Source of the DNA: an uncultured Pseudomonadota bacterium
GTDB taxonomy: Bacteria; Myxococcota_A; UBA796; SXON01
Assembly (NCBI GenBank): GCA_903885375.1
Contig: CAISIK010000064.1
Span: 456-64,455, forward strand
Length of the DNA: 64,000 nucleotides
Direction of reading: 5' to 3'
The position numbers and the translations under genes were made by a program. Below, one piece after another: positions 2,556-44,977 of this stretch (position 1 is its first letter; the number at the start of each line of letters is the position of its first letter). Below the pieces are notes generated by a model. That model was not told the origin of the DNA. It ran no database searches and was given only the letters and a program-made list of their open reading frames with translations.

Positions 2556-2591
2556 GCCGCACCCGCCTGGCGTGCTACATAGCGGCCCGTC

Positions 2592-3389: not shown

Positions 3390-3425
3390 GGGCGGGGTAG
3401 ACTGCTGCGCCTCGCGGGGATTCCC

Positions 3426-5462: not shown

Positions 5463-5921
5463 CTAGTCGAAGACGATCTCGCCGCCTGGCAGGAAGTACA
5501 GGATGAGCATGCGGCCGCCGCTGACGGTGGGGACGTGCTGACTGCCCGGCGGGTAGGCGATGAAGCGCTCGCGCTTGCCGTCGAAGCGGGGCTCGCCCGC
5601 GAGGTCGATGCAGAGCTCCACCTCGCCGCGGGGGTGCGTGTGGGCGCCCGCCGCGGGGCCATCCATGTCCACCACGTCGATGCTCAGGCCATGGCTGGCG
5701 GCATCGGCGCGGGTGAGGCGACCGAACTTCACGCCGCCGGCTTCTTTCGGCGTGAGCCACCCGGCCGCGTGGGCCGCGAGGGCAGTGGCCTCGAGGGCGG
5801 CGGTATCGAGCTGGTTCAGCGCCGCCACGAGCGTGTCGGGCGACCCGGTGCCTACGCGGGCAACCACCTCCGCAACCGGGAGGCAGTGCCGCAGCAGGTC
5901 CTCGCGCGTGACCACCATCAT
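5463..5921 (-). CDS. cupin-like protein (DUF4863-like from memory)
   Basis: 152-aa ORF with HTHPRGEVELC ... YPPGSQHVPTVSGGRMLILYFLPGG. Starts 4 nt after the actF stop on the same strand. Confidence 0.6.
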   Translation of the reverse strand: MMVVTREDLLRHCLPVAEVVARVGTGSPDTLVAALNQLDTAALEATALAAHAAGWLTPKEAGGVKFGRLTRADAASHGLSIDVVDMDGPAAGAHTHPRGEVELCIDLAGEPRFDGKRERFIAYPPGSQHVPTVSGGRMLILYFLPGGEIVFD

Positions 5922-5924
5922 CGC

Positions 5925-7936: not shown

Positions 7937-8461
7937 GGGTCACCTCGGTGGCGCCGGACGATTCGAGGATGTGAACGATCTCGTCCAGCCGGTTGCCGCT
8001 GCGCTCGAACACGATGCCGAAGCAGTCGTTCGTGAAGCGGGGGTCCTTCATCGCGGGATGCAGGTTCATGGCGGGAAGGCCGCAGAACTTGAGCAGGCCG
8101 GTGAGCGTGAACATCGAGGCCCAGAGGATGGTGCCTTCGAAGGTGACCACGAGGAACGGCGGAATGGACACCAGCGGCTTGCCACCGGGGATGATCATCG
8201 GCCAGTTGGCGTGCGTGAGCGACGCCAGGGAGAAGATCATCGTGCCGCCGAGGATGCCGCCCGCGAGGGTGAACCACCGCACGGGGCTCGGCTCACCCTT
8301 GTAGAGCATCTCGTCGATCTCGTGGCGGGGGATGGGGCTGAGGACCGTGAAGTCCTTGAGGCCGGCGTGCTGCAGGTCGTGGATGCCCTGAAGCAGGCAG
8401 TCCAGGTGCTTGTAGACGGCCTTCACCGTAGCGCCCGAGGCGCCCATGGCGTGGGAAGAGC

Positions 8462-8465
<4 letters not shown>
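7929..8465 (-). CDS. actD: alternative complex III subunit ActD (DUF3341-like)
   Basis: 178-aa ORF with two central hydrophobic helices, lying between actC and actE and overlapping both. Confidence 0.75.
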
Positions 8466-9795
<1,330 letters not shown>

Positions 9796-9796
<1 letters not shown>

Positions 9797-12700: not shown

Positions 12701-13011
12701 GGACCGTAGGCCGCGATCAGGTCGAAGTGGCCGCGGGTGCAAAGCCCGGGGCCGCTCGGGTGATCGGGATTGCCTTCCACGCCGACCACACGGCCGTCGG
12801 TGTTGCGGGCGACCAGGCCGCAGGCCGTGGCACACCCGTTGCACAACGAGGCGTAGTAGGTGGCGAGCCCCGGCTGCACGTTCTCGGGGTTCACGACATA
12901 GGGGAGCACCTCTTCCTGAGGCACCTTGTAGTCGTAGGCGCAGGCCGCCGCGGTGGCCGAGGTGGCAACCGCGCCTGCCTTGAGGAAGTCGCGGCGGTTC
13001 AGTCCGTCCAT
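9796..13011 (-). CDS. actB: alternative complex III ActB (fused molybdopterin-like and 4Fe-4S domains)
   Basis: 1071-aa ORF. Tat signal NRRDFLKAG. Ferredoxin-type clusters CNGCGACQIAC, CQHCAHAPCEGVCP and CVGTRYCANNCP. His-rich C-terminal tail. Confidence 0.9.
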
Positions 13012-13022
13012 TGTGGCTCCGG

Positions 13023-13700
13023 CTACTTGTGACAGGTCCAGCAGTCCTTCAGCTCAGCGCGCCGAAGTTCTGCCTTGGTACCGTAGTTTTCGGTGATGCT
13101 CTCGTGCTGGGCGTGGCAGTCGAGGCACCAGCCCATGTTCAGCGGGGCGACGCGCTCGTTCACCGTCATGTTCTGCACTTCGCCATGGCACTCCTGGCAA
13201 TCCAGACCGGCGACGACGTGCCGCTTGTGCGAGAAGTAGACGTAGTCGGGAAGGTCGTGGACCTTCTTCCAGGGGATGACTTCGCCCTTGTCCCAGTATT
13301 CCTTGAGCTTCACGAGCTCGGGCCGGTCGGTCGTATCGACCAGCGCGTGGCAGCCCATGCACACGCTCGTGGCCGGCACGCCCGCGTGCACGCCCTTGCG
13401 CGCGTTGCTGTGACAGTAGTTGCAGTCCATGCCGAGGGTCTTGACGTGCCGCTCGTGGGTAAACGCGATCGGCTGCTCGATGGCTTCATCGAGGGGCTGG
13501 CCGACGGTGACCACGAGGTTCCGGTCGAAGAGCTCGGGGGGGAGAAGATTCTTCATTCCGATGGTGAAGGTCTCCTCGGAGGCCTCCTCCGCCGAAGCTT
13601 CGTCATCTTCTGCGTTGGCGCGCGTGGCGAAACCCGCCATCCCCACGGCCGCGCCTGTGAAGAGCACGATTGCCAGGGTGGCCCGGGTGAGCTGTCGCAT
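13023..13700 (-). CDS. actA: alternative complex III pentaheme cytochrome c ActA
   Basis: 225-aa ORF with five CxxCH motifs (CNYCH, CMGCH, CQECH, CLDCH, CWTCH) and an N-terminal signal. Confidence 0.9.
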   Translation of the reverse strand: MRQLTRATLAIVLFTGAAVGMAGFATRANAEDDEASAEEASEETFTIGMKNLLPPELFDRNLVVTVGQPLDEAIEQPIAFTHERHVKTLGMDCNYCHSNARKGVHAGVPATSVCMGCHALVDTTDRPELVKLKEYWDKGEVIPWKKVHDLPDYVYFSHKRHVVAGLDCQECHGEVQNMTVNERVAPLNMGWCLDCHAQHESITENYGTKAELRRAELKDCWTCHK

Positions 13701-14639: not shown

Positions 14640-15053
14640 ATGCCCGGTTTCTGGATGATGCTCGCCTGCGTGGCCGCCGCGGTCGATCCCGCGCCGCCCT
14701 CTCCCCCCTCGCCCGTCGAGGTCGTGGCCGACGACGTCCCGCCTCCGGCTCCTCCGGTGCCTTCCATGCCCTCCGCCGTCGCCGAGGCGCGCATCGAAGG
14801 CCCCTCAACCCCGGGCGAGTGTGGCGCGGACGGCGACTGCGTGGCCACCGGCTGCGCCTCCGAGGTTTGCGTGGCGGGCCCGCGGGCCGGCGAGATCATC
14901 ACCACCTGCGAGGTGCTGCCCATCTTCAGCGAGCTCAGCGCCTGCGGCTGCCATGAAGGCGTGTGCAGCTGGACGAGGGTTCCCGGCGCGCGCGAGCTCG
15001 GCGCGCCGCGCACGCTCCCCGTGCGGGTGGTTGGTGGGGGCGGTGGGACTTGA
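14640..15053 (+). CDS. eight-cysteine lipoprotein
   Basis: ORF 14565-15053 trimmed to ATG 14640 (MPGFWMMLAC). Pro-rich tether, then 8 Cys (CGADGDCVATGCASEVC ... TTCE ... CGCHEGVC). The last 22 nt are antisense to the tRNA-Leu gene. Confidence 0.55.
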   Translation: MPGFWMMLACVAAAVDPAPPSPPSPVEVVADDVPPPAPPVPSMPSAVAEARIEGPSTPGECGADGDCVATGCASEVCVAGPRAGEIITTCEVLPIFSELSACGCHEGVCSWTRVPGARELGAPRTLPVRVVGGGGGT

Positions 15054-15117
15054 ACCCACAAGGGTATACACCCGGGGGATTTTGAATCCCCTGCGTCTGC
15101 CATTCCGCCACGCCCCC
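15032..15117 (-). tRNA. tRNA-Leu (anticodon CAA), type II with long variable arm, CCA encoded
   Basis: Hand-folded cloverleaf. Acceptor GGGGGCG/CGCCCCC, anticodon stem GGGGA/TCCCC, loop TTCAAAA, 15-nt variable arm, T-arm GTGGG-TTCAAGT-CCCAC, 3-prime ACCA. Confidence 0.95.
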
Positions 15118-32074: not shown

Positions 32075-35031
32075 GAAGCGTCCTCGAGGCAGGGGTCGTC
32101 GACCACCTCCTGCCCGTTGTTCTGGAAGTAGGTGGCGATCTGCATGACCATGTAGGTGCTGATGTCGAAGGGGTCGTCGGGGCGCGGGATGGCGAAGCCG
32201 TGGCTCCCGGTGGGGGTCGTGTACGGGAGCCGCATGGCGCTGGTGCCCGCGCTAGTGGGGACGGTGAGGCGGAGGGGGGCATCGCTGGGGGCGCCGGTGC
32301 CGTCCATGCCGTCGTCGAGATCGTCGGCGTCGAACAGGCAGCTGGCGCCGTTGGCATCGACGTAGGGGCCCCACTCCTCGAGGCCGGAGACCACGCCCCG
32401 GTCGATGAGGTAGCGGTCCACCGTCATGCCGTAGCGGTCGTCCACCACGGTGTCGTCGATCCAGCCGGCCGCGCGGGCGAGCGCGATCTCGCTGTTCACG
32501 CTCACGATCGTGTCGCCCGGGGTGGGGACGAGGAGCATGTTGCGCGGGACGCCGTTGGTTGGCGATTCCGTGAGCATGCGGGCGTAGCCGACCGGGTCGC
32601 CGCCCTCGAGCACGGCGCCGAAGATGAAGGCGGTGCGGCGCAGGTCGGGGGTGCCCCGAATCTTGCCGAGGCCCTCGGCCGCCGCCACGAGCGTGCTTCC
32701 CGCGGCGTAGGTGGCCCCCTGGAAGGACACCTCGTCCTGCCAGTCCTCGACCACCGCCACCTCCTCGCCCTCGGCGGTGAGGAAGGTCAGCCGGAGACGG
32801 TCGCCGGCTTCGGCGTTGTCGGGGAGCACGTAGCGGGCGCCGGCCTGGGCGCCGTTTTCGGGGATGCCGGCGAGCGCGCGTTTTTCCCAGGCGCTCGCGG
32901 CGTCGGCGGGGATGCCGAGCCGGAAGCGGCCGTCGGTGGGCACCAGACCCTCGCGGACCTCGCCATTGTCGAGGTTTTCGATGCGGATGCGGCCCCCGGC
33001 CGGGAAGGAGGGGAGGGTGGCCACGGGCAGGGACACCATGTCGGTGACGGAGTTCACGATCTGCACGATCTGCACGCTGCCATCGTCGGCCGGGTAGCCC
33101 ACGAACAGCGGCGACATCAGGCGGCCGTGCATGGCCTCGACCGCGCCGCCGATCTCGGTGCGCAGGGCCACGTCGAGGAGGCCGGCGCCGGCCACGATCG
33201 GGCTCCAGGCAGTGACCTCATCGATGATGCCCGCGGCCACCGCGGTGTTGATGCCGCCCAGCGAGCCGCCGATGACGTACTGGCGCGCGTCGGGGCCGCC
33301 GATGTCGGCGGTGCCATCGCCATCCCAGTCGCAGGAAACGGCCTTCTTGCCATCGGGGAGGGTCATCGTGCCCTGGCCGCACGCCATGGTCGCATCCACC
33401 ATCCGGGCATGGTCGAGCGCGCCCTGGCGCACCATGTCGCGGGTGTGGAAGGCGTCGGCCGTCCACTGGTCGCCGCCGGAGTCGCCGATACCGTCGTTGT
33501 CGAGGTCGCGGTAGCGGGAGTCCTGGAGGTGCGTGAGGAAGCCCTCGAGGCCCTTGCCCTTGAGCACTGCCTGGATGAGCGCGGCTTCGTCGGCGCTCAC
33601 GGTGGGACCGTGGCCCGGGTAGTCGAACGCGCAGGCCGCCATGCCCACCCGGTTGAAGGCCCAGGCAAAACCGAGGAAGTCGAAGCGGCTGGAGCCGTAG
33701 CCGTGCCCGAAGGACACGACCGGCGCGGGCTGGGCGACATCCTTCGGCAGCACGCAGGTGAAGACCACGCGCTCCTCGCGGGCACGGGCGCGACCGGCGC
33801 CGAGGTCCACATCCCAGAGGTCGTCGCTGTCGTCGGCCGCGGGCCAGGCGGCCTGCGTGCCGTCGAGGTCGGCCATGAAGTTGGGGGTGGTGAAGCTGCC
33901 GCCCACCACGTAGCTCCCGAAGGCCTCGTAGTTGGCGATGAGCGCGTCGGCGCCGGCGCCATCGAAGAGGCCGAGCTCCACCAGCGTGTCGAGCAGGACC
34001 GACACGGGGAGGGTGTGGCTCGGCACGCCCGGCATCTCGTGGACGGGCTCGGCACTGAGCACGCCGGCCGGGAACTGCTCGGCGAGGGAGGCGAAGGCCC
34101 CTTCGCCGAGGAGGCCTTGACGCACGGCGCGCAGGTCCCCCGAGACATCGCCGGTGGTGAAGGTCCAGGCGTAGGCGACGTCGCTGACGGAGAGATCGAG
34201 CTCGGGGAGCAGGTCCTCGAGCGGGCGGAGGGTTTCGGTCTGCTTGAGGTGGTTCACCCAGGGCCAGGGCGAGCGCACGGGCTCGCCGTCCGCCCCCACG
34301 AGGCGGTTGGTGAGGACCACGGCGTAGGTGGTCTTCTCGCGCAGGGGGCGCTGGGGGCGCCAGATGAGGGTGTCGGTCTGGCGCTCGTAGAAGGTGAGCA
34401 GGTCGGCGCGCGGATCGCCGCCCTCCGGGTACACGTTCGGCACGTCGAGGACCCCGTCGTTGTCGGTGTCCTCCCCCCAATCGAGCGAGCCGTTGCCGTT
34501 CACATCCTCGGCCACGGTGTCGAACACGAGCGTAGGCGACGCGAAGCGGCTGTCGTTGGGGAAGTAGCGGTTGGGGTCGGGCACATCGAGCGGGAAGCGG
34601 CCCTCACCGAAGTCGAGCGGCACGGCCTTGCCGTAGTCGGGGGAGCCCTCGGTGACGTCGATGACGTAGACCGCATCGTCGGCGAAGGCGGCCTCGCCGC
34701 GCTTCTCGTCATCGCGGTGGCGCAGGGCCACGTTGTCGAGGTCGAGCGGCGCATCGAAGCGGACGGCCATCGGGGCGTACACGCCGAAGCCGGTGAGGGT
34801 GTTCATCTTCTGGCGGGCGTTGCGCTCCATCTGCGTGGGCGCATCGGTGGGGATGTTCAGGCGCAGGCCGGTGGTGCTCGTGACATCGGTGCGCGTGGCC
34901 AGATCGTTGGGGAAGGGCAGCTCGGGGAGCGGCTGGGCATCCCAGTCGATCACCACGACGGGACCGGACCCTTCGGGGGTAGCCCGGAGCCCTTCCGGGT
35001 AGGGGGCGCAGGCGAGGAGGGCGAGGATCAT
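32023..35031 (-). CDS. large secreted lipoprotein with alpha/beta-hydrolase (lipase/esterase-like) core
   Basis: 1002 aa. Lipobox LLAC. SFGHGYGSSRFDF and the nucleophile elbow IGGSLGG (GxSxG). Confidence 0.7.
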   Translation of the reverse strand: MILALLACAPYPEGLRATPEGSGPVVVIDWDAQPLPELPFPNDLATRTDVTSTTGLRLNIPTDAPTQMERNARQKMNTLTGFGVYAPMAVRFDAPLDLDNVALRHRDDEKRGEAAFADDAVYVIDVTEGSPDYGKAVPLDFGEGRFPLDVPDPNRYFPNDSRFASPTLVFDTVAEDVNGNGSLDWGEDTDNDGVLDVPNVYPEGGDPRADLLTFYERQTDTLIWRPQRPLREKTTYAVVLTNRLVGADGEPVRSPWPWVNHLKQTETLRPLEDLLPELDLSVSDVAYAWTFTTGDVSGDLRAVRQGLLGEGAFASLAEQFPAGVLSAEPVHEMPGVPSHTLPVSVLLDTLVELGLFDGAGADALIANYEAFGSYVVGGSFTTPNFMADLDGTQAAWPAADDSDDLWDVDLGAGRARAREERVVFTCVLPKDVAQPAPVVSFGHGYGSSRFDFLGFAWAFNRVGMAACAFDYPGHGPTVSADEAALIQAVLKGKGLEGFLTHLQDSRYRDLDNDGIGDSGGDQWTADAFHTRDMVRQGALDHARMVDATMACGQGTMTLPDGKKAVSCDWDGDGTADIGGPDARQYVIGGSLGGINTAVAAGIIDEVTAWSPIVAGAGLLDVALRTEIGGAVEAMHGRLMSPLFVGYPADDGSVQIVQIVNSVTDMVSLPVATLPSFPAGGRIRIENLDNGEVREGLVPTDGRFRLGIPADAASAWEKRALAGIPENGAQAGARYVLPDNAEAGDRLRLTFLTAEGEEVAVVEDWQDEVSFQGATYAAGSTLVAAAEGLGKIRGTPDLRRTAFIFGAVLEGGDPVGYARMLTESPTNGVPRNMLLVPTPGDTIVSVNSEIALARAAGWIDDTVVDDRYGMTVDRYLIDRGVVSGLEEWGPYVDANGASCLFDADDLDDGMDGTGAPSDAPLRLTVPTSAGTSAMRLPYTTPTGSHGFAIPRPDDPFDISTYMVMQIATYFQNNGQEVVDDPCLEDASCAWLPALPEGDTGGGE

Positions 35032-35203
35032 GGCGGGCCGCTATCCGGCGTTGGGCGCGGGCGCTCGCGGGGGTGGGGGGGCGATGTCGGGCCGACGCGC
35101 CGCGACCCGTTCCGGGGGGCGCCGGGGCAGGCGCGCGTCGGGGCGCCTTGCGTGGCGCTGGGCCCCCGGCGGCGCTTCGACGGGGGCGATACGGGCGGAG
35201 CGC

Positions 35204-36892
35204 ATGCCGCAACCGGAGCCGTCGCCGCCCCCTGCCGAGGTGCGCAGCCCGTGGGGGCGGCTGGCGGCGCCGTTGGGTCTGGCCCTCGCGGTGCTGTTCG
35301 GCGCCCGGGCAGCGGTGATGAACCCGGTGGCGGCCTTCCCGCAGCGCGACACCGCCTTTGGCGAGGTGGCCATCCATCACCTGCAGGACGCGCTGCTGGG
35401 CCGCGCGGCGTGGGCCGACGCCCCGCTCGGTTGGCCGCTCCCGGGCGGTACTGCGCGGCTCGACTGGATGCTCGGGCAGGCGCTGCTCACGCTGCCGCTG
35501 AGGGCGGTCGGCGCGGCACCGTGGACCTGTCATGGGTCCGCGAGCGCGCTCGGCCTGGTGGTGTCGGCGCTCGCGGCGTTCGGCATCGGGCGTCGGCTGG
35601 GGCTCACGCGCGCAGGGGCGCTGCTGGCGGGCCTCGGCGCCGGGCTCGGGCCGGCGGCGCTCGGCGAGCTGCACCACGCGAACCTCACGTGGGGCGGGCT
35701 CGGCGGCGTGGCGGTCTGGCTCATTTGGGGGGCGGGCCACCGCGCGACGGACGCGGCCGATCCCCGTCGGGCCGCGCTGCGCGGCGGGATGGCCGGCGCT
35801 GTCCTGGCCGGGGCCGCCCACTTCGGGCTGTACGCAGCACTGTTCAGTGGCGTCACTTTTCTGGCGGCCCTGCCGGCGTTGGCGGTCACCGCCGGCCGGC
35901 GCGCGTGGCTCGGCTTCTTGGGCGGTGCGCTCGCGGTGGGGCTCACCCTCGTGCCGGTGGCGGTGCTCTACGCCGGCGCTGACAGCGCCGTGGATGCGGG
36001 CGACAGCGCCGGCGAATCCTGGGACCCCGCCAGGAGCCTCGCGCCCACCGCCGCCGCCCCGGTGCACCGTGCGCTCGGGCTGGCGGCGCTTCCCGCGGCC
36101 AAAGCGGTGCTGCAGCGCTCGGCGAACCCGGGCTATCTGCTCGGCGGGATGGGGATCGTAGGGGTGTCGCTGGCGCTCCGTCGGTGGCGCGCGGGCTGGC
36201 CGATGGTGCTTGCGCTGGGGCTCTCGGCGGCGGCGATGGCGGTGGGGGGCCGGCCGAGCTGGGCGGGGAACTCGCTCGGGGTGGTGGGCCCCTACGCCTG
36301 GGTCGACCTCTTCTCCGGCCACCGACTGCGCGCGCCGGAGCGCTGGCTCTTCCTCGTGCACGTGGCGCTGGCGCTATTTGCGGGGCTGACGCTGAGCGCG
36401 GCGCAGCGGTGGGTGGCGGGGGGCGGCGGGGCGCGGGCGTGGAGGGCGATGCCGCGGGCCTGCGCGTGGGTGCCTGCGCTCCTGGGCGCCGTGGTGCTCC
36501 TCGTCGCGTACGGCGAGCTGCCGGTGAGGGTGCCGCACGCCGCGGCGCGCACCGGCTTTCCGCCACCGGCCTACACGCTGCTCGATGGCGCGGCGCCGGG
36601 ACCGCTCTTCGAGGTGCTGGGCGGGAAGGACCCATGCCGGCCGGTGGATCGGCTGCGCATGCAGCCGGCGCACGGCCACGCGCTGGTGGGCGGGCACCAG
36701 GGCCGCTTCTCGCCGGAGATCCGGGCGCTGAACAAGACGCTCGACGCCTGGCCGTCGCCCGCCACCGTGAGCTGGCTGCGGGAGGCAGGCGTGGGGCTGA
36801 TCCTGGAGCATCCGCCGCTCCGGCCGCTGCCCGCAGACCCGGGGTTGGTGTGCACGGAGGCGGCCAGCCATCGGCTCTGCACGCTGCGCTGA
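35204..36892 (+). CDS. polytopic membrane protein (glycosyltransferase-39/ArnT-like topology)
   Basis: ORF 35030-36892 trimmed to ATG 35204. More than 10 hydrophobic segments, then a soluble C-terminal domain. Family not confirmed. Confidence 0.6.
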   Translation: MPQPEPSPPPAEVRSPWGRLAAPLGLALAVLFGARAAVMNPVAAFPQRDTAFGEVAIHHLQDALLGRAAWADAPLGWPLPGGTARLDWMLGQALLTLPLRAVGAAPWTCHGSASALGLVVSALAAFGIGRRLGLTRAGALLAGLGAGLGPAALGELHHANLTWGGLGGVAVWLIWGAGHRATDAADPRRAALRGGMAGAVLAGAAHFGLYAALFSGVTFLAALPALAVTAGRRAWLGFLGGALAVGLTLVPVAVLYAGADSAVDAGDSAGESWDPARSLAPTAAAPVHRALGLAALPAAKAVLQRSANPGYLLGGMGIVGVSLALRRWRAGWPMVLALGLSAAAMAVGGRPSWAGNSLGVVGPYAWVDLFSGHRLRAPERWLFLVHVALALFAGLTLSAAQRWVAGGGGARAWRAMPRACAWVPALLGAVVLLVAYGELPVRVPHAAARTGFPPPAYTLLDGAAPGPLFEVLGGKDPCRPVDRLRMQPAHGHALVGGHQGRFSPEIRALNKTLDAWPSPATVSWLREAGVGLILEHPPLRPLPADPGLVCTEAASHRLCTLR

Positions 36893-36936
36893 GGGGAGGG
36901 GGCGCCGCGAGCGGCGCGGCTTCCAAGGGCTTTGGC

Positions 36937-36984
36937 CAAACCGCCGCGACCGTCCGCTGGGGTCCCGGAGTCCGGCGCGGTTTG
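36937..36984 (+). repeat. conserved stem-loop element, copy A
   Basis: 8-bp stem CAAACCGC/GCGGTTTG encloses a 32-nt loop. The 20-mer CGCCGCGACCGTCCGCTGGG (36942-36961) is identical to 41405-41424. Confidence 0.6.
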
Positions 36985-37101
36985 CGGCGCCTCCGGGAGC
37001 GACGACCGGGGCCCAGGGGGGCCCCGACTTCGCAGTTCTTCACATGGGGCATCACGAAGCCTTCATGCGCGGGGGCGATGCTGTGGGGGCAAGGAGTTCG
37101 A

Positions 37102-37605
37102 ATGTTCGGTTTCTTCATGGGTACACTCTGTCTTTTCGCGCTCGGCGGCGTTCTCCGTCGGATGATGTGGATGCGCCACGGTCGCTTCGCGCAAGGCGGC
37201 CACGGGGGTGGGTGGGGCCGCGGCCACTGGCATCGCGGACGCGGCGGCGCGTTCGCGCAACAGGGCTTCGGCCGGGCCATGGCCGAGGTGGTGAAGCGTC
37301 GGCTGCGCATCGACCCCAACCAGAAGGGCATCGTGGAGCACGCGCTCGCCGACGCCCGCAAGTCGGGGAGCGAGCTGCGCGACGAGCTGGCCGCCACCCG
37401 GGCGGGGATCGCCGACGCTTTCCGGGGTGAAGCGGTGGACGACGCGGCCCTCGCCGCCGCCTTCGCCCGCCACGACGACGCCCTCTCGCGGGCCCGTCGC
37501 GACGTCGTGTCGACGTTCAAGCAGGTGCACGCCGTGCTCGACGAGAAGCAGCGCGCCCGGGCCGCCGACTGGATGGCCTCGGGCAGCCAGGGAGGGTGTG
37601 TCTGA
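37102..37605 (+). CDS. CpxP/Spy-family periplasmic stress protein-like
   Basis: AAGGAG (37091-37096) precedes ATG 37102. N-terminal hydrophobic segment, a Gly/His/Arg-rich stretch, and two LTxxQ-like motifs (IDPNQ, LDEKQ). Confidence 0.65.
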   Translation: MFGFFMGTLCLFALGGVLRRMMWMRHGRFAQGGHGGGWGRGHWHRGRGGAFAQQGFGRAMAEVVKRRLRIDPNQKGIVEHALADARKSGSELRDELAATRAGIADAFRGEAVDDAALAAAFARHDDALSRARRDVVSTFKQVHAVLDEKQRARAADWMASGSQGGCV

Positions 37606-37745
37606 TGATCCGCCTTCGCATCCTCGCCATCCTCCTGTTCGTCGGGGCCGTGGTCGGCTTCGGGAGCGGCTTCCGCCACCTCGCCGGGGGCGGGTCCTGG
37701 CACGGCCACGCCTGCGAGCGGGCCGCGGCGGAGCCCACGCCTTAG
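37605..37745 (+). CDS. possible 46-aa single-pass membrane peptide (not in the ORF track)
   Basis: The ATG overlaps the preceding TGA (TGATG). Translates to MIRLRILAILLFVGAVVGFGSGFRHLAGGGSWHGHACERAAAEPTP. Ends 12 nt before the regulator gene. Confidence 0.3.
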   Translation: MIRLRILAILLFVGAVVGFGSGFRHLAGGGSWHGHACERAAAEPTP

Positions 37746-37757
37746 AGCGGAGCGGTC

Positions 37758-38444
37758 ATGCCCGTGCGCGCCCTGCTCATCGACGACGACACCCGCCTCG
37801 CCGAGCTGCTCGCCGCCTACCTCACGCCCCACGACGTCGTGCTCATGCACGCGCCGGATGGCCCGAGGGGGTTGCGGCAGCTCGGCGCCGGCGGCGTGGA
37901 CATCGTGCTGCTCGACATCATGATGCCGGGCATGGATGGGCTCGACGTGCTCCGGCGTCTCCGCCAGCAGTGGGCGGTGCCGGTGGTGATGCTCACCGCC
38001 CGTGGCGACGAGACCGACCGGGTGGTCGGGCTCGAGCTGGGCGCGGACGACTACCTCGCCAAGCCCGTGTACCCGCGGGAGCTCCTCGCCCGCATCCGCG
38101 CGGTGCTCCGCCGCACGGCGCCCCGGGCGCCCGATCGGCGCATCGTCGTGGGCGACCTCGAGATCGACCCGGGCGCGCGCCTGGCCACCATCGGGCGCGA
38201 TGCCCTCCCGCTCACGGCCCTCGAATTCGACCTGCTCCTCGCGCTGGCCGAGCGGGCGGGGCGCGTGGTGCCGCGGGATGCGCTCTGGGAGGCCGCCGGC
38301 CGCAGCGACACCGTGGTGAACGAACGCACGGTGGATGTGCACGTCTCGCACCTCCGGGCCAAGCTGGGCGACGACGCGCGCGACCCGCAGCGCCTGAAGA
38401 CCATCCGCGGGGCGGGCTACCTGCTCGTGCGGGAGCCGGGATGA
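37758..38444 (+). CDS. OmpR-family response regulator
   Basis: LLIDDD, LLDIMMPGMDG and LAKPV receiver motifs, plus a winged-helix C-terminus (TVDVHVSHLRAKL). Confidence 0.95.
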   Translation: MPVRALLIDDDTRLAELLAAYLTPHDVVLMHAPDGPRGLRQLGAGGVDIVLLDIMMPGMDGLDVLRRLRQQWAVPVVMLTARGDETDRVVGLELGADDYLAKPVYPRELLARIRAVLRRTAPRAPDRRIVVGDLEIDPGARLATIGRDALPLTALEFDLLLALAERAGRVVPRDALWEAAGRSDTVVNERTVDVHVSHLRAKLGDDARDPQRLKTIRGAGYLLVREPG

Positions 38445-38463
38445 GTGCCGGTTCGGGTGGCGG

Positions 38464-39555
38464 GTGAGGCGCCGCGGCCCTCAAGGCCCTCCCTGGCACC
38501 GCAAGGGGAAGGCCCCGCGCGGGTGGCTCCTCGCCCGCGGCATCCACCGGACCGTGGTGGGTTTCCTGCTGGTCGCGCTCCTCCTCGGGGGAGTCGGCGG
38601 CGCGCTCCTGCATCACGCGCTGCGCGATGGCCACGTTTCCGGCGGGTTGGTGTGTCTCGCCGCCGCGGTCTTGTTCGCGGTGTGGCCGCTGGCCTGGATG
38701 GCCACGGCGCGCATCGCCTGGCCGCTGCGTGATCTGGCGAACGTGGCCGGCGAGATCCACGAAGGGCGCCTGTCCAGCCGCACGCAGCTCCCGGAGGGGG
38801 ACACCGAGGTGGGCGCCGTCGGCGTAGCGCTGCGGGGCGTGGCCGACCGGGTGGCCCGTCAGCTTCAGGACCAGCGGGCGCTGATGGCGGCCGTCTCCCA
38901 CGAGCTCCGCAGCCCGTTGGGCCGCGCGCGGATACTCATCGAGCTCGCGCGTGAGGGCACCGCCCCCGCCACGGCCTACGACGAGCTGCAGGCGGAGATC
39001 GACGGCATGGACCAGCTGGTGGGCGACCTGCTCGCCGCCGCCCGCATCGACTTCGAGGCGCTCGCCCCGGTGGACCTCGACCCGGGCGCGCTTGCCCGGC
39101 GGGCCGCGGGCACGGCGGGCCTCCCCGATGCCGCCGTTCACGTGGGGCCCGACCCCGGGTCGGTGCGCGCCGACCCGACCCTGCTCGCGCGGGCGCTGGG
39201 GGTGCTCCTCGACAACGCCCGGCGCTACGGGGCCGCCGAGGTGCACCTGCACGTGCGGGGGCGGCTCAACCGCGTACGTTTCGAGGTGGAGGACGACGGC
39301 CCGGGCTTTCCGGAGGGCACCGCCGAGCAGGCCTTCCAGCCCTTTTGGCGCGGGCCGGCCGGACCGGACGGGGCGCGGCCCCACGGCGAAGGCCTCGGGC
39401 TCGCGCTCGTGCGCCAGATCGCCGCCGCCCACCACGGCGAGGCGGGCGCGGAGAACCGCAGCGAAGGCGGCGCCCGCGTGTGGATCGAGCTCCCGCGTGA
39501 CCCCACTCCCGCCGCGGGCGGGTCGGAAAAGGCGACGCCCAAACCCGCCCGATGA
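38464..39555 (+). CDS. sensor histidine kinase
   Basis: Two TM segments. H-box SHELRSPL, N-box LLDNARRYG, G-boxes DDGPGF and GEGLGLAL. GTG start. Confidence 0.9.
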   Translation: MRRRGPQGPPWHRKGKAPRGWLLARGIHRTVVGFLLVALLLGGVGGALLHHALRDGHVSGGLVCLAAAVLFAVWPLAWMATARIAWPLRDLANVAGEIHEGRLSSRTQLPEGDTEVGAVGVALRGVADRVARQLQDQRALMAAVSHELRSPLGRARILIELAREGTAPATAYDELQAEIDGMDQLVGDLLAAARIDFEALAPVDLDPGALARRAAGTAGLPDAAVHVGPDPGSVRADPTLLARALGVLLDNARRYGAAEVHLHVRGRLNRVRFEVEDDGPGFPEGTAEQAFQPFWRGPAGPDGARPHGEGLGLALVRQIAAAHHGEAGAENRSEGGARVWIELPRDPTPAAGGSEKATPKPAR

Positions 39556-39690
39556 ATGGAAGTGGGTAGGATCCCCCACATCCTGTCGACTTCGGTTCAT
39601 CCGCTCGTGCCGCCGTCTCCCGCACGAAGCGCGGCTGGACCGGTCGCTCGTTCCTCGGCGACAGCGGGCGCGGGGGCCGCGCGCTCGGCC

Positions 39691-39726
39691 GCCCGCGACC
39701 CGCCGCCCGCCCGCGACCCGCCGCCG
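39691..39726. repeat. two tandem copies of an 18-nt GC-rich unit
   Basis: GCCCGCGACCCGCCGC occurs at 39691 and again at 39709, in the convergent intergenic region. Confidence 0.8.
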
Positions 39727-40459: not shown

Positions 40460-41386
40460 GTGGATCCTTCCTGGCTCGATGCGGTCGTGCTGCTCACCAT
40501 CGGCGGTTCGTCCTGCTCGGGCACCTTCGTGGAGTCCTCCGGCCTGGTGCTCACGGCCTACCACTGCGTGGCCTCGGGGGCGCCCGTGCGCGTGGAGACG
40601 CACGACGGCAGGACAGCGGTGGGGCGAACGGTGGCGGCCGACCCCGCGCACGACCTCGCCCTCGTGGAGGTGGCCGCCCTCGGCCCGAACGCGCCCGTTC
40701 TCGCTCTCCGTGTGGAGGACCCGGCGCTCGGCGAGCGCCTCTGGGCGGTCGGCCACCCCTTCGCCTCCGCCGCCAGCGGCGCGATGGAGGGCACCCTCCG
40801 CTGGAGCGTGACCGAAGGCGTGGCCTCGGCGGTGGGCGCCACCTTCGTGCAGACCGACGCCGCGCTCAACCCCGGCAACAGCGGCGGCCCCCTGCTGGAC
40901 GGCGCGGGCCGCATCGTCGGGGTCGTGAGCCGGAAGCTCGCGGCCGACAACATCTCCTTCGCCACGCGCGCGCCGCTGGCCCGCGCGCTGCTCGACGCGC
41001 GCACCCGGCCCGCCCTGCTCGGTGGAACCTGGAGCGTGGGCGGGCTCCTCGCGGCCAGCCGCACCCAGCAGGTGGCGGCGGCCGCCGAGCTCTCGGTGGT
41101 GGTGCGCGAGCGGGTGTGGGTTCGGGGCGCCGTGGGTGGCACGCTCGTGGGCGACCCCACGCCGTACGCCGCCGCCGCGCTCGGCCTTCGCCAGCGCCTG
41201 GGCACCGGCCCCTTCTCCACCGCGGTGGACGTGGGCGGGATGATCGATGCCGCCGAGCCGCTCGACCCCTCCGTGGTGGCGCGGGTGAGCCTGCTCACGG
41301 TGGGGCTCGGCTACCGGTGGGCGCCGCTCTCGGGGGCGATGGGGGCGGAGCTGAGCTTCAGCCTCCCGCTGCACGGTGTGTGGTGA
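40460..41386 (+). CDS. trypsin-like (S1) serine protease with non-PDZ C-terminal extension
   Basis: Catalytic contexts TAYHC, HDLALV and GNSGGPL. The track ORF starts at GTG 40373, which overlaps moaD; GTG 40460 is preferred. Start uncertain. Confidence 0.8.
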   Translation: MDPSWLDAVVLLTIGGSSCSGTFVESSGLVLTAYHCVASGAPVRVETHDGRTAVGRTVAADPAHDLALVEVAALGPNAPVLALRVEDPALGERLWAVGHPFASAASGAMEGTLRWSVTEGVASAVGATFVQTDAALNPGNSGGPLLDGAGRIVGVVSRKLAADNISFATRAPLARALLDARTRPALLGGTWSVGGLLAASRTQQVAAAAELSVVVRERVWVRGAVGGTLVGDPTPYAAAALGLRQRLGTGPFSTAVDVGGMIDAAEPLDPSVVARVSLLTVGLGYRWAPLSGAMGAELSFSLPLHGVW

Positions 41387-41398
41387 GGGCACGCGGGG

Positions 41399-41448
41399 GA
41401 GACGCGCCGCGACCGTCCGCTGGGCAAATCGGGGCAGGTGCGCGTCTC
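41399..41448 (+). repeat. conserved stem-loop element, copy B
   Basis: 9-bp stem GAGACGCGC/GCGCGTCTC encloses a 32-nt loop whose first 17 nt equal those of copy A. Confidence 0.6.
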
Positions 41449-41563
41449 GGCGCGACCGGGCGCGCCGCCTAAACCGGGGCATGCAAGCTGTGAAACTGGC
41501 GGCAGGCCACGGGTTGGACATTTTTTTCTGACAGCGGCGGCATTGCGCCGGGGACCGGGTACA

Positions 41564-42109
41564 ATGCTGGACCGCTCCGGGGTTCACGCTCCGGGGTTCA
41601 TCATGCGTATGTGGACTGGTAATGGTGCCTTTCAATGGGAAGCTTCCCGCAAGTGGGAACTGAACGCGGCCTCCGAATTCTGCAGAGGCGATGGCGCGGT
41701 GCTCATTCCTGGGGGGCTTCAATCGTTCAGCGTGTTTTTCCGCCGAGCCAGTCAGTCGGCGGGGACATTCACCCTCAAGGTGCACACAACTCCGATCTAT
41801 ACGCAGCTGCTCGATACCGAGGTCACCTCGAACAACGCGGCCGCTACCCTGCTTCCGCTCGCCGTACAGCCGCTCACCGGCTTGGAGATGACCTCCACTG
41901 GGGCCAAAGTGTTTGGGGCGAGGATCGACCCTTCGCAAGCCATGGGCACCGTGCTGTTCTGGGAGGTGGCCAACACCGTTGCCGGTGGCGTTCTGGTCGG
42001 CGACATCTACCTCGTGGCCAATCATCAAGGCGCAGTAGCGAACCCGAGGTTCGCTCGGACCGTGGACGACCCCGACGGTCAGGGCGGCACCAACCCGCGA
42101 ATGCGGTGA
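41564..42109 (+). CDS. hypothetical single-domain beta-rich protein, apparent paralog of the 27229 product (island 2, gene 1)
   Basis: ORF 41438-42109 with candidate ATG starts at 41564 or 41603. Shares the QxE...WEL and RR...F.L...TP motifs with the island 1 protein. Confidence 0.55.
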   Translation: MLDRSGVHAPGFIMRMWTGNGAFQWEASRKWELNAASEFCRGDGAVLIPGGLQSFSVFFRRASQSAGTFTLKVHTTPIYTQLLDTEVTSNNAAATLLPLAVQPLTGLEMTSTGAKVFGARIDPSQAMGTVLFWEVANTVAGGVLVGDIYLVANHQGAVANPRFARTVDDPDGQGGTNPRMR

Positions 42110-42118
42110 GGGGCGATC

Positions 42119-42460
42119 ATGGCCTACATCGACAGGCCGAGCAAGGAGTTGCTGACCTACTACCGCGGCACGGTTTCTGCGCTGAAGGTGGAGCAGTACG
42201 ACGAGCGGGACCAGATTTGGTTCATCCTGGACTTGACGGAAGAAACGGCCGCGCTGCCTCCATTCGGCTACACGCTGCCGGTCGGGCACGAGGTGCACTA
42301 TCTGTGCATCTACCGCGATATCGGCACCACGGTCGCGCTGGCCCAGCTGCAGTTGTTGCGCACGGCGCTGATGGAGCGGGCCGAGGTGGGGGTGTGGGCG
42401 CTGCGCGACCTCGCAACGACGACGCAATTTGTCTACTCCGTCTGCTTGTATCCGGGATAA
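42119..42460 (+). CDS. hypothetical protein (113 aa; island 2, gene 2)
   Basis: ATG 42119 lies 9 nt after the previous stop, behind a GGTGAGGGG purine run. No family recognised. Confidence 0.5.
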   Translation: MAYIDRPSKELLTYYRGTVSALKVEQYDERDQIWFILDLTEETAALPPFGYTLPVGHEVHYLCIYRDIGTTVALAQLQLLRTALMERAEVGVWALRDLATTTQFVYSVCLYPG

Positions 42461-42749
42461 GCAGAATTTTGTTATGGGAGCGGGCGGGCGTAACGGCAAG
42501 TGACCAGCGTGGAGCGCGGCCCGGTCGAGGCGGGGGACTGATGGCGGGTGGCCAACTCGGATTGCGGCGACGGGAATGGTGGGTGGGCCTGAGTGCGGGC
42601 GTGGCGTACCGCAGGGCCAAAGTGTTTGCCGCAGCACGTCCGCATCTCCCAGTCCGTTCCGCGCGGCACGTCCGGCAGGACAGGGCTGACGAAGCGAGGG
42701 AGGGGATACAGGCGGGCGCCGTGACCGGGCTTCGAGCCTACTCGAGTAG

Positions 42750-43640
42750 ATGGAGCGGCCGAGGGCTCCTCGTTTGGGGCGAGCGACGGCCGGTGAGCCA
42801 CCGGGCGCCCGCGAAGGTGCGGCCCGCGCGGAGGTGCCGGTGAGTACGGGCAGTCCGGGGCTTCCTCTGGTCGCGGTGCGAGTTCGGCCGACTCTCTTCG
42901 TCGGAGACGCGGGCTCGGCCAGTGCAAATGCGGTCGCCAAATGCAGCGAAATGATGCGGCTCACCACCACGGCATTTGCTCAGGCAGGAGTGGTTCTTGC
43001 CTGGGAAACACTGAGAATCGTCGAGAGTGCCACGATGGAGCGAGCCGCGAGCGGTCGCCAGTCGGCGTGGACGGAGGGGCAGTGCACGCCATCGGCGTCA
43101 TGGATGGACGTTTTCTTCATTGAGAACACCTACGCTGACGCCGACGCCGAGGTGTCGCCCTCGTCGGGTCGGCCGGAATTCCACGGAGTGACCCTTCACC
43201 CCGATCCGAGTGCCTCCCCTCCGCTCCTTGGCTGGGGCGTGTGGGTGTACTGGCAGGTCTCGACGTGGACCACCCTGGCTCACGAACTCGGGCATGCTTT
43301 CGGCCTGCCCCACGTCGATACAGGGAGCGGGTCATATTCGGAGACGATAGAGGAGTTTAGGCTTGACGATTACGCCTTCATGCCGTTCGAAAATGACACG
43401 GTGGGGGTGGGCTCAAACCTGATGATTCAGGGGACTGACAGCACAAGCGACCCCAGCGACTTCACTTGGACGCACGGTCAGGTGCTGTTGATGCGTCGGA
43501 CGCTCGCGTCGCGTGCGAGCCGGTGGGCCTTTGCTTCGTCCTATTGGCGAAGTTGGGGGGGGCGGGACACGCTCCCGGTCGGTTTCGTTCGGCTGCCTGA
43601 TTGCGTCAGCTTTCTGGGTGCCGAATGGGGGTGGCCGTGA
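42750..43640 (+). CDS. metzincin-type zinc metalloprotease (HExxHxxGxxH)
   Basis: HELGHAFGLPH motif. Start ATG 42750 or GTG 42840. No obvious signal peptide. Confidence 0.75.
   Translation: MERPRAPRLGRATAGEPPGAREGAARAEVPVSTGSPGLPLVAVRVRPTLFVGDAGSASANAVAKCSEMMRLTTTAFAQAGVVLAWETLRIVESATMERAASGRQSAWTEGQCTPSASWMDVFFIENTYADADAEVSPSSGRPEFHGVTLHPDPSASPPLLGWGVWVYWQVSTWTTLAHELGHAFGLPHVDTGSGSYSETIEEFRLDDYAFMPFENDTVGVGSNLMIQGTDSTSDPSDFTWTHGQVLLMRRTLASRASRWAFASSYWRSWGGRDTLPVGFVRLPDCVSFLGAEWGWP
43554..43562 (+). repeat. homopolymeric G9 tract inside the metalloprotease CDS
   Basis: Nine consecutive G, lying in the codons that read SWGGR. Second-longest homopolymer seen by eye. Confidence 0.9.
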
Positions 43641-44023
43641 AGGCAGCGAACTGGGGCGCGGTTCGAGTGTTCGCTGCACTGCTTTTGACCCTGACGGCCG
43701 CGTGCCAGGAAGATGTCTGGGAATGCGCTGGGGATGACTGCGCTTGCGCAGTGGATGACGACTGCGTCATCACCACCTGCGCGTCATCCGCCGATGCCTT
43801 CGAGTGCTCTCCCGAGTGCCCATGTACCAATGGATGGCCCCTGCCCAGGTCCGTGGCCGATCGCGTCGCGGCCGCCAGCTTGGCGGAAGGGTGCGGGCAT
43901 TGCGAGCAGTCGTCTGTGGTGGGGAGCTGTATTCGGACCGAGTGCGACGTCGTCGAGTTGGAAGCCAGTTGCCGCTTGGGCAGGTGTGTCGGCGTGCCCG
44001 CGGGTGGTCGTGCAGCACCCTGA
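43637..44023 (+). CDS. Cys-rich lipoprotein overlapping the metalloprotease stop
   Basis: GTG 43637 overlaps the protease stop (GTGA); ATG 43625 is an alternative. Lipobox LTAAC, then 16 Cys including DDDCVITTCAS. Confidence 0.6.
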   Translation: MKAANWGAVRVFAALLLTLTAACQEDVWECAGDDCACAVDDDCVITTCASSADAFECSPECPCTNGWPLPRSVADRVAAASLAEGCGHCEQSSVVGSCIRTECDVVELEASCRLGRCVGVPAGGRAAP

Positions 44024-44131
44024 CTGGCGTGTCCCGGAATCCGCCGACGCCGAGCATCAGCCCGCCCCGGCGGCGCCCGGCGCGCGCCTGCCCTGCCTCC
44101 CCTGAGGTGGGTCGCGGCGCGCCGGCCCGCC

Positions 44132-44977
44132 TCACCGAACGAGCTGCCCCCGGGGCACCACCCGCACCGCCGGAACGAGCGCCCCGCCGCGCTCCGCGAG
44201 GTATTCCACCTCGCCCACCGGCTCGCCGAGGAAGCGCTCCCCCAGCTCGGCGAAGCGGGCGGGATCGCCGGTGGAGAGGAAACGCAGCCGGCCGGTGCCC
44301 GGGCTCGCGAACGAGGGGTGGCGCGCCAGCCAGTCCACGAGGCGCTCGGCCACCCAGGGCGCCGGATCCAGCAGGGTGACCTCGGGGGGGAGGGCGCCCT
44401 CGAAGGCGCGGCGCAGGAGCGGGTAGTGGGTGCACCCGAGCACGAGGGTGTCGATGTCGCCGAGGGTGGCCACGTACCGGCGCACGGCGGCGCGGGCCAC
44501 GTCGGTTTCCTCCCAGCCATCCTCCACGATGGGGGCGAGGAGCGGGGCCGCCCGCTCCACCACCAGCACGTCGGCGAGCTTCCGCACCTCGGTGGTGAAC
44601 GTACCGCTGGCCACGGTGCGCGCGGTGCCGAGGAGGCCGATCCGGCCGCGCGTGGCGCCCACGGCGCACTCCGCCGCCGGGATGGTGACCCCGAGCACGC
44701 GGCGGGTCTCGGAGCCGTAGCGGGCCTGGAGGTGGCGGAGGGCCACGCTCGAGACCGTGTGGCACGCCACCACCACGAGCCGGCAGCCCTCGGCGAAGAG
44801 CCGCTCCACGCACTGCTCGGAGAAGTCGAGCACCGCCTCGGCCTCCCGGCCGCCGTAGGGCGCGCGGCCGGAGTCGCCGAGGTACACAAAATCGTGGTGG
44901 GGCAGCGCGCGGCGGAGCTCCCGCAGGACGGTGAGCCCCCCGAAGCCCGAGTCGAGCACGCCGATGGGAGCGCTCAT
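44132..44977 (-). CDS. murI: glutamate racemase
   Basis: VLDSGFGGLTV, VVACHTVSS and LGCTHYPLL motifs. ATG 44977 overlaps the upstream stop (ATGA). Confidence 0.93.
   Translation of the reverse strand: MSAPIGVLDSGFGGLTVLRELRRALPHHDFVYLGDSGRAPYGGREAEAVLDFSEQCVERLFAEGCRLVVVACHTVSSVALRHLQARYGSETRRVLGVTIPAAECAVGATRGRIGLLGTARTVASGTFTTEVRKLADVLVVERAAPLLAPIVEDGWEETDVARAAVRRYVATLGDIDTLVLGCTHYPLLRRAFEGALPPEVTLLDPAPWVAERLVDWLARHPSFASPGTGRLRFLSTGDPARFAELGERFLGEPVGEVEYLAERGGALVPAVRVVPRGQLVR

Follow-up and report, generated by a model that had tools for sequence, protein, structure and literature searches.

The 64,000-nucleotide stretch of contig CAISIK010000064.1 (assembly GCA_903885375.1) analysed here, hereafter the window, carries between a trypsin-like protease gene and murI a 2739 bp segment (41393-44131) that is an insertion between convergent core genes. 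On a single strand it encodes a β-strand-rich protein (A), a 113-residue protein (B), a metzincin-type zinc protease (C), and a cysteine-rich lipoprotein (D). Judged by gene order in other genomes, these four genes are a conserved recurring cassette and not a chance grouping. Our favoured but tentative reading is that the segment is a horizontally acquired mini-island with one copy of a rare, conserved, self-contained four-component cassette. With similar reserve, we propose that the cassette may be a phase-variable polymorphic conflict module, in which the metzincin would be the effector and the lipoprotein its cognate envelope partner. The mechanism put forward below is built on gene anatomy and population patterns.

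Insertion between the protease gene and murI

The segment is bordered by the protease gene (40487-41386, plus strand; Pfam Trypsin_2, E 3e-28) and by murI (44132-44977, minus strand; TIGR00067, E 4e-49). In the related genomes L018-L021, found through MurI proteins of the same 90%-identity cluster (285-aa member P0044) on long contigs, the two genes are convergent and 5 bp apart, and no cassette lies between them. BLASTN alignment with L018 shows homology to the window that stops at 41392 and restarts at 44131, with flanking DNA 80-81% identical and an empty site that reads TAG-GCCAC-TCA. The 5 bp spacing in the relative identifies the whole block as an insertion. An initial annotation of this stretch had placed four same-strand genes between the protease gene and murI, which the open reading frames and the Pfam and TIGR matches confirm, and had suggested comparing related genomes for presence of the block, the comparison that reveals the insertion. 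Conserved core synteny with normal composition, which it had named as the outcome that would speak against its proposal, is not what was found: an empty site exists and GC content is low.

The window as a whole is GC-rich (about 71%). GC content is 0.656 in the island and 0.711 in the rest of the window, which places the island in the lowest 1% among stretches of equal size, and it drops locally from about 0.76 in the flanks to 0.60-0.66. Third-position GC content (GC3) is 0.72-0.87 in the four island genes versus 0.91-0.95 in the flanking genes. The reduced G+C that had been noted earlier therefore stands, and the hand count of 71/120 given for 42121-42240 is exact. Two hallmarks of a genomic island are thus present, namely presence or absence at a conserved site among related genomes (L018-L021) and atypical composition (GC and GC3). 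A third is lacking, as no integrase, transposase, or other mobility gene and no tRNA target lies in or beside the 2.7 kb; the sole tRNA of the window is at 15035-15117 (Rfam, at gathering score).

The four genes and their recurrence

Gene A (41603-42109, plus strand) encodes 168 residues without a signal peptide and is the signature gene of the cassette (alignment A6). Its start is MRMWTG at 41603, where 29 of 33 homologues begin at the aligned methionine, and the public call (41564-42109) is 13 codons too long. The public gene calls compared here are those of a freshwater-lake metagenome-assembled genome (MAG), GCA_903876335.1, whose contig CAIQZO010000047.1 contains a stretch identical to the window. 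A first AlphaFold2 run with 9 sequences gave a predicted local distance difference test score (pLDDT) of 48.8 and was unusable; repeated with 33 sequences, it gave a pLDDT of 75.8, a predicted template modelling score (pTM) of 0.70, and strands only. The model presents A as an eight-strand jelly-roll β-sandwich with a resemblance to other proteins at fold level only, and one terminus is disordered and basic. Its Foldseek neighbours (template modelling, TM, scores 0.3-0.53) include a nanovirus capsid protein, the carbohydrate-binding module CBM22, Eph ligand-binding domains, PirA, and uncharacterised phage proteins. Homologues of A form 33 clusters among 5.8 billion proteins, all at E < 1e-47, and an exhaustive HMMER profile search of 1.84 billion representatives returned 6 clusters and no distant relatives. 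No relatives were found in IMG/VR (2.9 million contigs), INPHARED (50,697 phage records), or PLSDB plasmids, and PHROGs gave no meaningful match; a viral or plasmid origin was rejected on these grounds. The window copy retains every invariant residue of the family.

Gene B (42119-42460, plus strand; 113 aa) carries the motif D(I/V)GTTVALAQLQLLR (alignment A3) and is present in one to three copies per cassette, as tandem paralogues (BLASTP of L010, L012, and L007), with the window copy at the short end of the family length range. The idea that B copies are tandem precursors of ribosomally synthesized and post-translationally modified peptides was rejected, as their C-terminal parts are long, aromatic-rich, and pattern-conserved like a folded domain.

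Gene C (42750-43640, plus strand; alignment A2) encodes a protease without a signal peptide. Translation from ATG 42750 gives 296 aa and from GTG 42840 gives 266 aa. The GTG, preceded by GGAGG at 42830-42834, is the likeliest start on sequence features, and in the alignment LPLVAVRV corresponds to the N-terminal strand of the homologues. In another assembly the gene is called from 42750 with 283 aa (P0010), and the public 201-aa call (43035-43640) is about 95 codons too short. The zinc motif HELGHAFGLPH (residues 178-188; 43281-43313) is followed by a conserved NLM. H178, E179, H182, G185, and H188 of the HExxHxxGxxH signature are invariant in six aligned homologues, and the invariant M225 (N-L/P-M), 37 residues past the third histidine, is a plausible Met-turn candidate. 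The extreme C-terminus is conserved as D-x-x-G-A-x-x-A-x-W/F. Against curated metzincin families no whole-domain match was obtained: the best, Reprolysin_5, scores 25.8 bits against a cut-off of 27 and covers 32 profile positions around the motif, other families score lower, and five C homologues likewise fall below every curated metzincin family threshold. The sub-threshold matches to Reprolysin_5, ADAM, and serralysin cover the motif only, as do the matches of PDB profiles to ADAM, serralysin, and matrix metalloprotease (MMP) structures. A single-sequence homologue search with C returned only a strain variant. By its motif, then, C is a metzincin that belongs to no curated family. The window copy retains its zinc site, Met-turn candidate, and conserved C-terminus.

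Gene D (plus strand, 43625-44023 from ATG, or from GTG 43637; alignment A4), uncalled in the public annotation, encodes a lipoprotein with 15 cysteines and the lipobox LTAAC. A basic-hydrophobic signal (hydropathy maximum 2.0, residues 13-27) is followed by the lipobox, MGVAVKAANWGAVRVFAALLLTLTAA and then Cys. D homologues were detected by tblastn in L006 (E 8e-13) and L007 (1e-7), and are also present in L010, L011, L025, and L030; the lipobox is kept in all of these apart from L006, where it is an atypical LATC. The window copy is intact and keeps its cysteine pattern. In L004, L005, L008, and L012, a second type of cysteine-rich lipoprotein, Lp, unrelated to D (alignment A7), is found. In hydropathy profiles of the window, a hydrophobic N-terminus with a lipobox is seen in D alone and not in A, B, or C, and across cassettes a signal peptide with a lipobox is limited to D and Lp. 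The lipoprotein is thus predicted to be the sole exported product of the cassette. Just upstream of the L006 cassette, a DUF922 zinc-peptidase lipoprotein (2663-3505, minus strand; E 6e-31) adjoins an 85-aa cysteine-rich protein that aligns with the D family (2373-2630, plus strand), which gives L006 two zinc peptidases that each have a D-like neighbour.

The D start overlaps the C stop codon by 16 nt (ATG) or 4 nt (GTG), the C/D overlap is 13 nt in L006, L011, and L010, and in L010 the C-D pair is inverted as one. The overlapping stop and start codons and the joint inversion point to translational coupling of C and D.

B, D, and Lp resemble A in having no match in Pfam, NCBIfam, PADLOC, PHROGs, or PDB sequences, and by these searches all four are new families. 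None of the 5027 models of known defence systems in PADLOC-DB 2.0 matched A-D or four homologues at E <= 1. The initial annotation had recognised a function in the protease only and had not recognised the combination as a described system, naming the placement of all four proteins in well-characterised families as evidence to the contrary. Both views are borne out, as no defence model matches, three of the four proteins (A, B, and D) fall in no characterised family, and C has only the sub-threshold matches to the metzincin motif. The interpretation of the set as a lysis cassette (endolysin, spanin, colicin-lysis protein) was rejected, as neither a holin nor any other transmembrane protein is encoded and D greatly exceeds such lipoproteins in size.

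Every locus with enough sequence contains A, then B and a metzincin. The order A-B-C-D is shared by the window, L006, L011, L025, and L030, and L007 has A-B-C-D-B. Lp takes the place between B and C in A-B-Lp-C (L004, L005, L008) and A-B-Lp-B-C (L012). L010 has A-B-B-B followed by C-D jointly on the opposite strand, L015 has A-B-C with a 64-aa cysteine-rich lipoprotein, and L026 has A-B-C' without a lipoprotein. In the window, a terminator-like hairpin with a T-rich tail (42441-42465, plus strand) overlaps the B stop codon and is followed by a spacer (42466-42749, or to 42839 if C begins at GTG 42840) of 290-380 nt, depending on the C start. The hairpin is a consensus match from a pattern scan in which terminator-like sites were as numerous as expected by chance. 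The hairpin and spacer after B, together with the gene orders, indicate that the cassette is made of two units, A-B(n) and C-lipoprotein. The spacer (42466-42749) has no coding periodicity and no Rfam match. A structured RNA in it was rejected (fold z = -0.5 versus shuffles; island Rfam matches at chance level), as was a gene remnant, since hidden Markov models for B, Lp, D, and C found nothing on six frames of 42430-42800.

The surroundings of the cassette differ from locus to locus. L004 has genes for DnaB, ParA, an HTH/M78 protein, and a serine recombinase (resolvase); L010 has a tyrosine integrase, an excisionase, Replic_Relax, and a transposase; and L015 has a DNA polymerase A gene (DNA_pol_A). 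From this gene content, these three cassettes sit on integrative or plasmid-like elements. Bare chromosomal mini-islands are found in L011, L012 (after relA), L007 (between ABC-transporter genes), and L008 (adjoining a Ser/Thr kinase gene; GC3 0.74 versus 0.93). Three genomes with flanks 87-95% identical carry the cassette at three sites of the flhA-fliA-flgFGAH region: L026 before flhA (9143-13629), L025 between flhA and fliA (9845-12385), and L011 after flgH (9856-12245). In L025, 12 nt of the flhA 3' end (CTTTCGCTGCGC) are duplicated around the insertion, and in L011 a 13-15-nt sequence, ACGGGCCAC(A/G)AA(T)CC, found once in the empty site, stands on both sides of the cassette. These short duplications at the borders suggest that the cassette integrates through short homologies. 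Directly upstream of A in L026, a gene at 9162-9875 has sub-threshold matches to DUF6036 (E 1e-3) and the AbiEii nucleotidyltransferase (8e-3).

Allelic variation, single-base runs, and edge repeats

Strain L030 carries an allelic cassette in the same slot as the window and shows how unevenly the locus diverges. Relative to the window copy, its right flank is 97.6% identical in DNA, MurI 99.3%, and GpsA 98.2%, and the identity of the cassette proteins falls from 92% in A through 65% in B and 38% in D to 28% in C. A is 81% identical in DNA versus 92% in protein, which indicates strong purifying selection. In a second comparison, L026 and L011 have A and the first part of B in common (90% DNA identity), after which L026 carries a different metzincin and different downstream genes. 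These alignments point to a constant part, A and partly B, under strong purifying selection, next to an effector-partner part that is replaced rapidly. A hypervariable effector and adjacent partner beside a constant region is what polymorphic toxin-immunity loci display.

A strain much closer to the window, L028, is 99.8% identical in the island and differs at six positions. The changes are W12C in A (41638, an invariant tryptophan), W165S (43243) and G243S (43476) in C, A127T in D (44015), one synonymous change, and a G8-to-G9 frameshift (43554). The protease gene beside the island in this strain has a patch of 11 synonymous and 2 non-synonymous changes. The frameshift concerns a run inside the 3' end of C that had been described as a G9 tract. 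In the window it is G8 (43555-43562, plus strand); G9 is found in the 99.8%-identical strain L028/L029, where it frameshifts C and removes its conserved C-terminus. G8 (intact C) and G9 thus coexist within the window species.

Single-base runs are also concentrated upstream of A. In 9 of 14 loci, the 130 nt before A contain a run of at least 7; the background in these loci is 0.016 per 130 nt, which gives an enrichment of about 40-fold. About six independent lineages are represented. The runs are T7 in the window, C10 in L006, T11 in L009, C7 in L010, C12 in L011, C10 in L025, C11 in L026, G14 in L012, and G10 in L024. The window T7 (41521-41527, plus strand) lies 82 nt upstream of A between the hexamers TTGGACA and CTGACA. 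It had been called unusual for this genome, which proves correct, as it is the sole T run of at least 7 in the 64 kb, and it is one member of the pattern seen across the family. The G runs of L012 and L024 are framed by TTGACG and a −10-like hexamer at 17-18 nt spacing, and the C runs of L006 and the L011 group have a TGTCAA-N-TGTCAA repeat on one side and a TTGAC hexamer on the other.

In the L007 lineage, the run is found within a regulator. The gene directly upstream of A (L034 81-1109; L032 598-1680) encodes a PspF-like sigma-54 activator with a GAFTGA motif, a C-terminal helix-turn-helix (HTH), and no sensory domain, and contains a G13/G14 run. G13 gives an intact protein of 342 aa with the HTH, and G14 loses the HTH; both are found in contigs otherwise 99.96-100% identical. 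Three Logan contigs end exactly at this run. A sigma-54 promoter, TGGCAC-N5-GTGC, lies 78 nt upstream of A in this lineage only, and it was rejected as a family feature. Two properties of a contingency locus are seen: slippage-prone repeats in a promoter region or reading frame (T7 at −82, G8 in C, and the runs of the family), and length polymorphism among near-identical sequences (G13/G14; G8/G9; C12/C10/C11 at 87-95% identity). Short-read cassette contigs (L033-L037, L030/L031) repeatedly end at the run or tandem repeat upstream of A, and also about 100 nt after B. Such ends would fit a population that is heterogeneous in the control region and where the variable C-D part begins.

Near the start of A, a perfect tandem repeat of the 14-mer CGCTCCGGGGTTCA (41573-41600, plus strand) ends 2 nt before the ATG. 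L030 has both copies and a degenerate third that carries a GGAG ribosome-binding site. A pattern scan of the window found no sigma-70-like promoter.

The edges of the island are formed by copies of a repeat of about 80 nt that resembles repetitive extragenic palindromic (REP) sequences (alignment A8). The left copy (41387-41472, plus strand; nhmmer E 4e-15) and the right, inverted copy (44050-44134, minus strand; E 4e-10), the last 3 nt of which lie within the murI stop codon, place a perfect 12-nt core in symmetric inverted positions at the island ends (p about 0.005-0.01). With the direct pair at 35080-35165 and 36928-37012 (plus strand), which brackets an orphan 562-aa gene (35204-36892; no Pfam match), there are four copies in the 64 kb, with an invariant core CGCCGCGACC and a mean column identity of about 73%. 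The stem-loop that the initial annotation had described at the 5' edge (GAGACGCGC, 41399-41407, with GCGCGTCTC, 41440-41448) lies inside the left copy. Its pairing is real, but the left repeat folds no better than shuffled sequence (z = +0.97), and it is therefore conserved as a repeat and not as a demonstrated structure. The repeat was not found in the examined 16.9 kb of L018, and in L030 the right copy is kept with the 97.6%-identical flank although the cassette allele differs. By this distribution, the repeat is species-specific and goes with the flank rather than with the cassette. A transposon with conserved terminal inverted repeats was rejected as a general mechanism, as none comparable surround the cassette in nine other loci. 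The inverted repeats are kept as a local feature of the window island.

Two other regions of the window deserve mention. The other stretch of lowest GC content, 5900-9800 (0.63-0.65), encodes polytopic membrane proteins and a CxxCH cytochrome (CAPCHG); it probably represents core respiratory-complex genes, with low GC content due to membrane-protein composition, and not an island. A second variable segment lies beyond moaD/moaE of the same core block, where the window (32119-39700) has a 1002-aa orphan, the 562-aa orphan, Metal_resist, a response regulator, and a histidine kinase, and L018 (10475-16858) has Lactamase_B, Usp, TauE, rhodanese, and a sigma-54 activator.

Proposed function and comparison with known systems

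The integrase-less mini-island, carriage on mobile elements, polymorphism, swapped module, tandem paralogues, and slippage-prone control together point to a conflict or contingency locus. The co-translation of a signal-less enzyme with an exported, disulfide-rich lipoprotein follows the logic of an envelope-acting effector and its immunity protein or inhibitor. In the phase-variable conflict module that we tentatively favour, the signal-less C would be the effector, acting in the envelope or periplasm of other cells or after release, and D, in the producer envelope, would be the cognate neutraliser, whether immunity protein or inhibitor. Jelly-roll A and multi-copy B would be the constant components, with a role in carrying, targeting, or licensing the effector, and through single-base slippage only a fraction of the population would express the module. 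The window cassette looks intact in this respect, given the invariant residues of A, the zinc site and C-terminus of C, and D. A version that we consider more doubtful is a four-component conflict system of a type not previously described, in which A and a variable-copy adaptor would deliver or license the metzincin, the lipoprotein would prevent self-damage, and the whole would move as an integrase-less, slippage-switched cassette of 2.3-2.7 kb. If true, three of its four protein families would be new, and it would employ a delivery or sensing principle without a described counterpart.

Several observations weigh against a conflict module. The delivery domain or linked secretion system of polymorphic toxins was not found, with A and B matching nothing in Pfam or NCBIfam, no secretion or delivery apparatus linked to the cassette, and a model of A that Foldseek does not place near Hcp, VgrG, or PAAR. 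L026 has no Cys-rich lipoprotein, and elsewhere two or more unrelated types of lipoprotein take different places in the gene order; the lipoprotein may thus be accessory rather than obligate. L028 combines the A W12C change with the C frameshift, and the cassette may be decaying in that lineage. As for control, the window has only a T7 run upstream of A, this run has the same length in all five contigs examined, and the window scan detected no canonical promoter. Finally, the family is tiny (6 clusters at 50% identity), and the comparative statistics rest on about 10 independent lineages.

The conflict module ranks first among the readings and anti-phage or anti-mobile-element defence by abortive infection second, with an exported protease, a virus-like remnant, and decaying DNA trailing. 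In the defence reading, which we regard as rather unlikely, A (with B) would sense a phage component and release cytoplasmic C, which, like the zinc protease Lit of e14, would cut an essential protein of the host or the phage, and the lipoprotein would add surface exclusion. A patchy, mini-island-like distribution on mobile elements, extreme diversity within a species, and apparently phase-variable control, as in many restriction and defence loci, would all be expected of such a system, and cytoplasmic action is the simplest reading of a protease without a signal peptide. Virus capsid proteins and phage jelly-roll proteins are among the best Foldseek matches of A, and the weak AbiEii/DUF6036-like gene adjoins the L026 cassette. 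These points are offset by the failure of all 5027 PADLOC models to match and by the absence of known defence genes around most copies. An exported, disulfide-rich lipoprotein coupled to the effector fits poorly with a cytoplasmic mechanism, and A is the most conserved component, whereas defence sensors usually evolve fastest. A literature search found no paper on a metzincin with anti-phage defence or on Reprolysin_5.

AprA/AprI and PrtA/Inh each pair a signal-less metzincin with an adjacent, signal-bearing small protein. By analogy, C could be a protease of the serralysin kind released by non-classical export for nutrition or predation, as an accessory trait, with D protecting the producer periplasm and A and B as chaperones or export helpers. 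We think this quite improbable. The arrangement of C beside a signal-bearing small protein would mirror these pairs, the conserved extreme C-terminus of C is as expected for a C-terminal sorting signal, and in L006 a DUF922 zinc-peptidase lipoprotein adjoins a D-like Cys-rich protein. C has no RTX repeats, however, and no genes for an ATP-binding cassette (ABC) transporter, membrane fusion protein (MFP), or other secretion component are linked to it. Identity of 28% within a species, phase-variable control, and replication and partition genes as neighbours would be unexpected for a nutritional protease.

It is more improbable still that the segment is neutral, decaying foreign DNA without current function in this genome. 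The island differences in L028 (four non-synonymous, one frameshift, and one synonymous, including W12C in A), the position of B at the short end of its length range, and the unexplained 290-380-nt spacer would suit decay. The window copy nonetheless keeps the A invariants, the C zinc site, methionine, and C-terminus, and the D cysteine pattern, and the comparison of alleles shows strong purifying selection on A. An identical B protein also occurs in 59 blocks of a public collection, so the island-bearing strain is widespread and its genes are stable.

Least probable is a remnant or satellite of a virus-like element, with A as a single-jelly-roll capsid-like protein, C as a maturation protease, and B and D as accessories: a nanovirus capsid protein is the best PDB Foldseek match of A (E 3e-4) with other jelly-roll capsids listed, A has a disordered basic terminus, and the cassette is mobile without its own integrase, but the TM-scores of 0.3-0.46 equal those of CBMs and Eph receptor domains and denote a generic jelly-roll, the unit of only 2.3-2.7 kb contains no replication gene, and viral contigs, phage records, and PHROGs gave no matches.

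If the phase-variable conflict module is real, it would be an uncatalogued system of environmental high-GC bacteria (the related MAGs are labelled Myxococcota, Deltaproteobacteria, and Pseudomonadota), in which the effector is a protease with no export signal and three of the protein families have no relatives. It would also extend phase variation, which has been studied mainly in host-adapted pathogens, to free-living freshwater bacteria. The cassette offers a compact test case for integrase-less movement between and within genomes, as three close relatives carry it at three sites and one allele can replace another in a REP-bounded slot, and its analysis corrects the public annotation at A, C, and D. 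Its reach is limited by rarity, with about 35 protein clusters in 5.8 billion.

A comparison with known systems shows partial likeness to several of them. With periplasm-acting effector-immunity pairs of interbacterial antagonism, such as Tse1-Tsi1 and Tae-Tai of the type VI secretion system (T6SS), and with polymorphic toxin loci, the cassette appears to share the pairing of an enzyme without a signal peptide and a small, co-translated partner that is exported or a lipoprotein. As in these systems, effector and partner are polymorphic and module-swapped beside a constant part, tandem partner-like paralogues are present, and carriage is on mobile elements. In contrast to these systems, the cassette has no linked secretion system and no Hcp, VgrG, PAAR, Rhs, LXG, or other delivery domain, A is a predicted jelly-roll and not an Hcp fold, and the cassette partners belong to no known immunity family. 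The likeness to the serralysins (AprA-AprI, PrtA-Inh) resides in HExxHxxGxxH with a downstream methionine and in a signal-less protease beside a small signal-bearing protein, and serralysins are among the best PDB sequence matches of C (E 3e-4, motif region only). They differ in that C has no RTX or β-roll and no type I secretion genes, and its homology is limited to about 35 residues around the motif; D is a 15-Cys lipoprotein versus the β-barrel Inh fold, and A and B have no counterpart. Lit of e14 and other protease-based abortive-infection or defence systems have a patchy distribution like that of the cassette and likewise place an HExxH zinc protease, cytoplasmic in their case and presumably so for C, on a mobile element. 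There is no sequence relationship to Lit, and the cassette is a four-component unit with a lipoprotein and no PADLOC match.

The control sequences resemble those of contingency loci (Bordetella fim, Neisseria opc/porA, Haemophilus hif, and phase-variable restriction-modification systems), with runs of 7-14 bases between or immediately before −35/−10-like hexamers, further runs inside regulator and effector reading frames, and near-identical sequences that differ in run length. The hosts, in contrast, are environmental, probably Myxococcota-like high-GC bacteria rather than host-adapted pathogens, the window T7 does not vary, and switching is predicted. With mobile insertion cassettes and REPIN segments, the island shares the form of a transposase-less passenger block bounded by an inverted repeat of about 80 nt that is found elsewhere in the genome. 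It differs in that the window arms are only about 70% alike, with no target-site duplication and no REP-associated tyrosine transposase (RAYT) or other transposase in the window, and in that cassettes of other genomes have no comparable terminal repeats and the repeat follows the flank. Conflict cassettes that are mobile and phase-variable and use a protease as effector are known in general, but not in this architecture.

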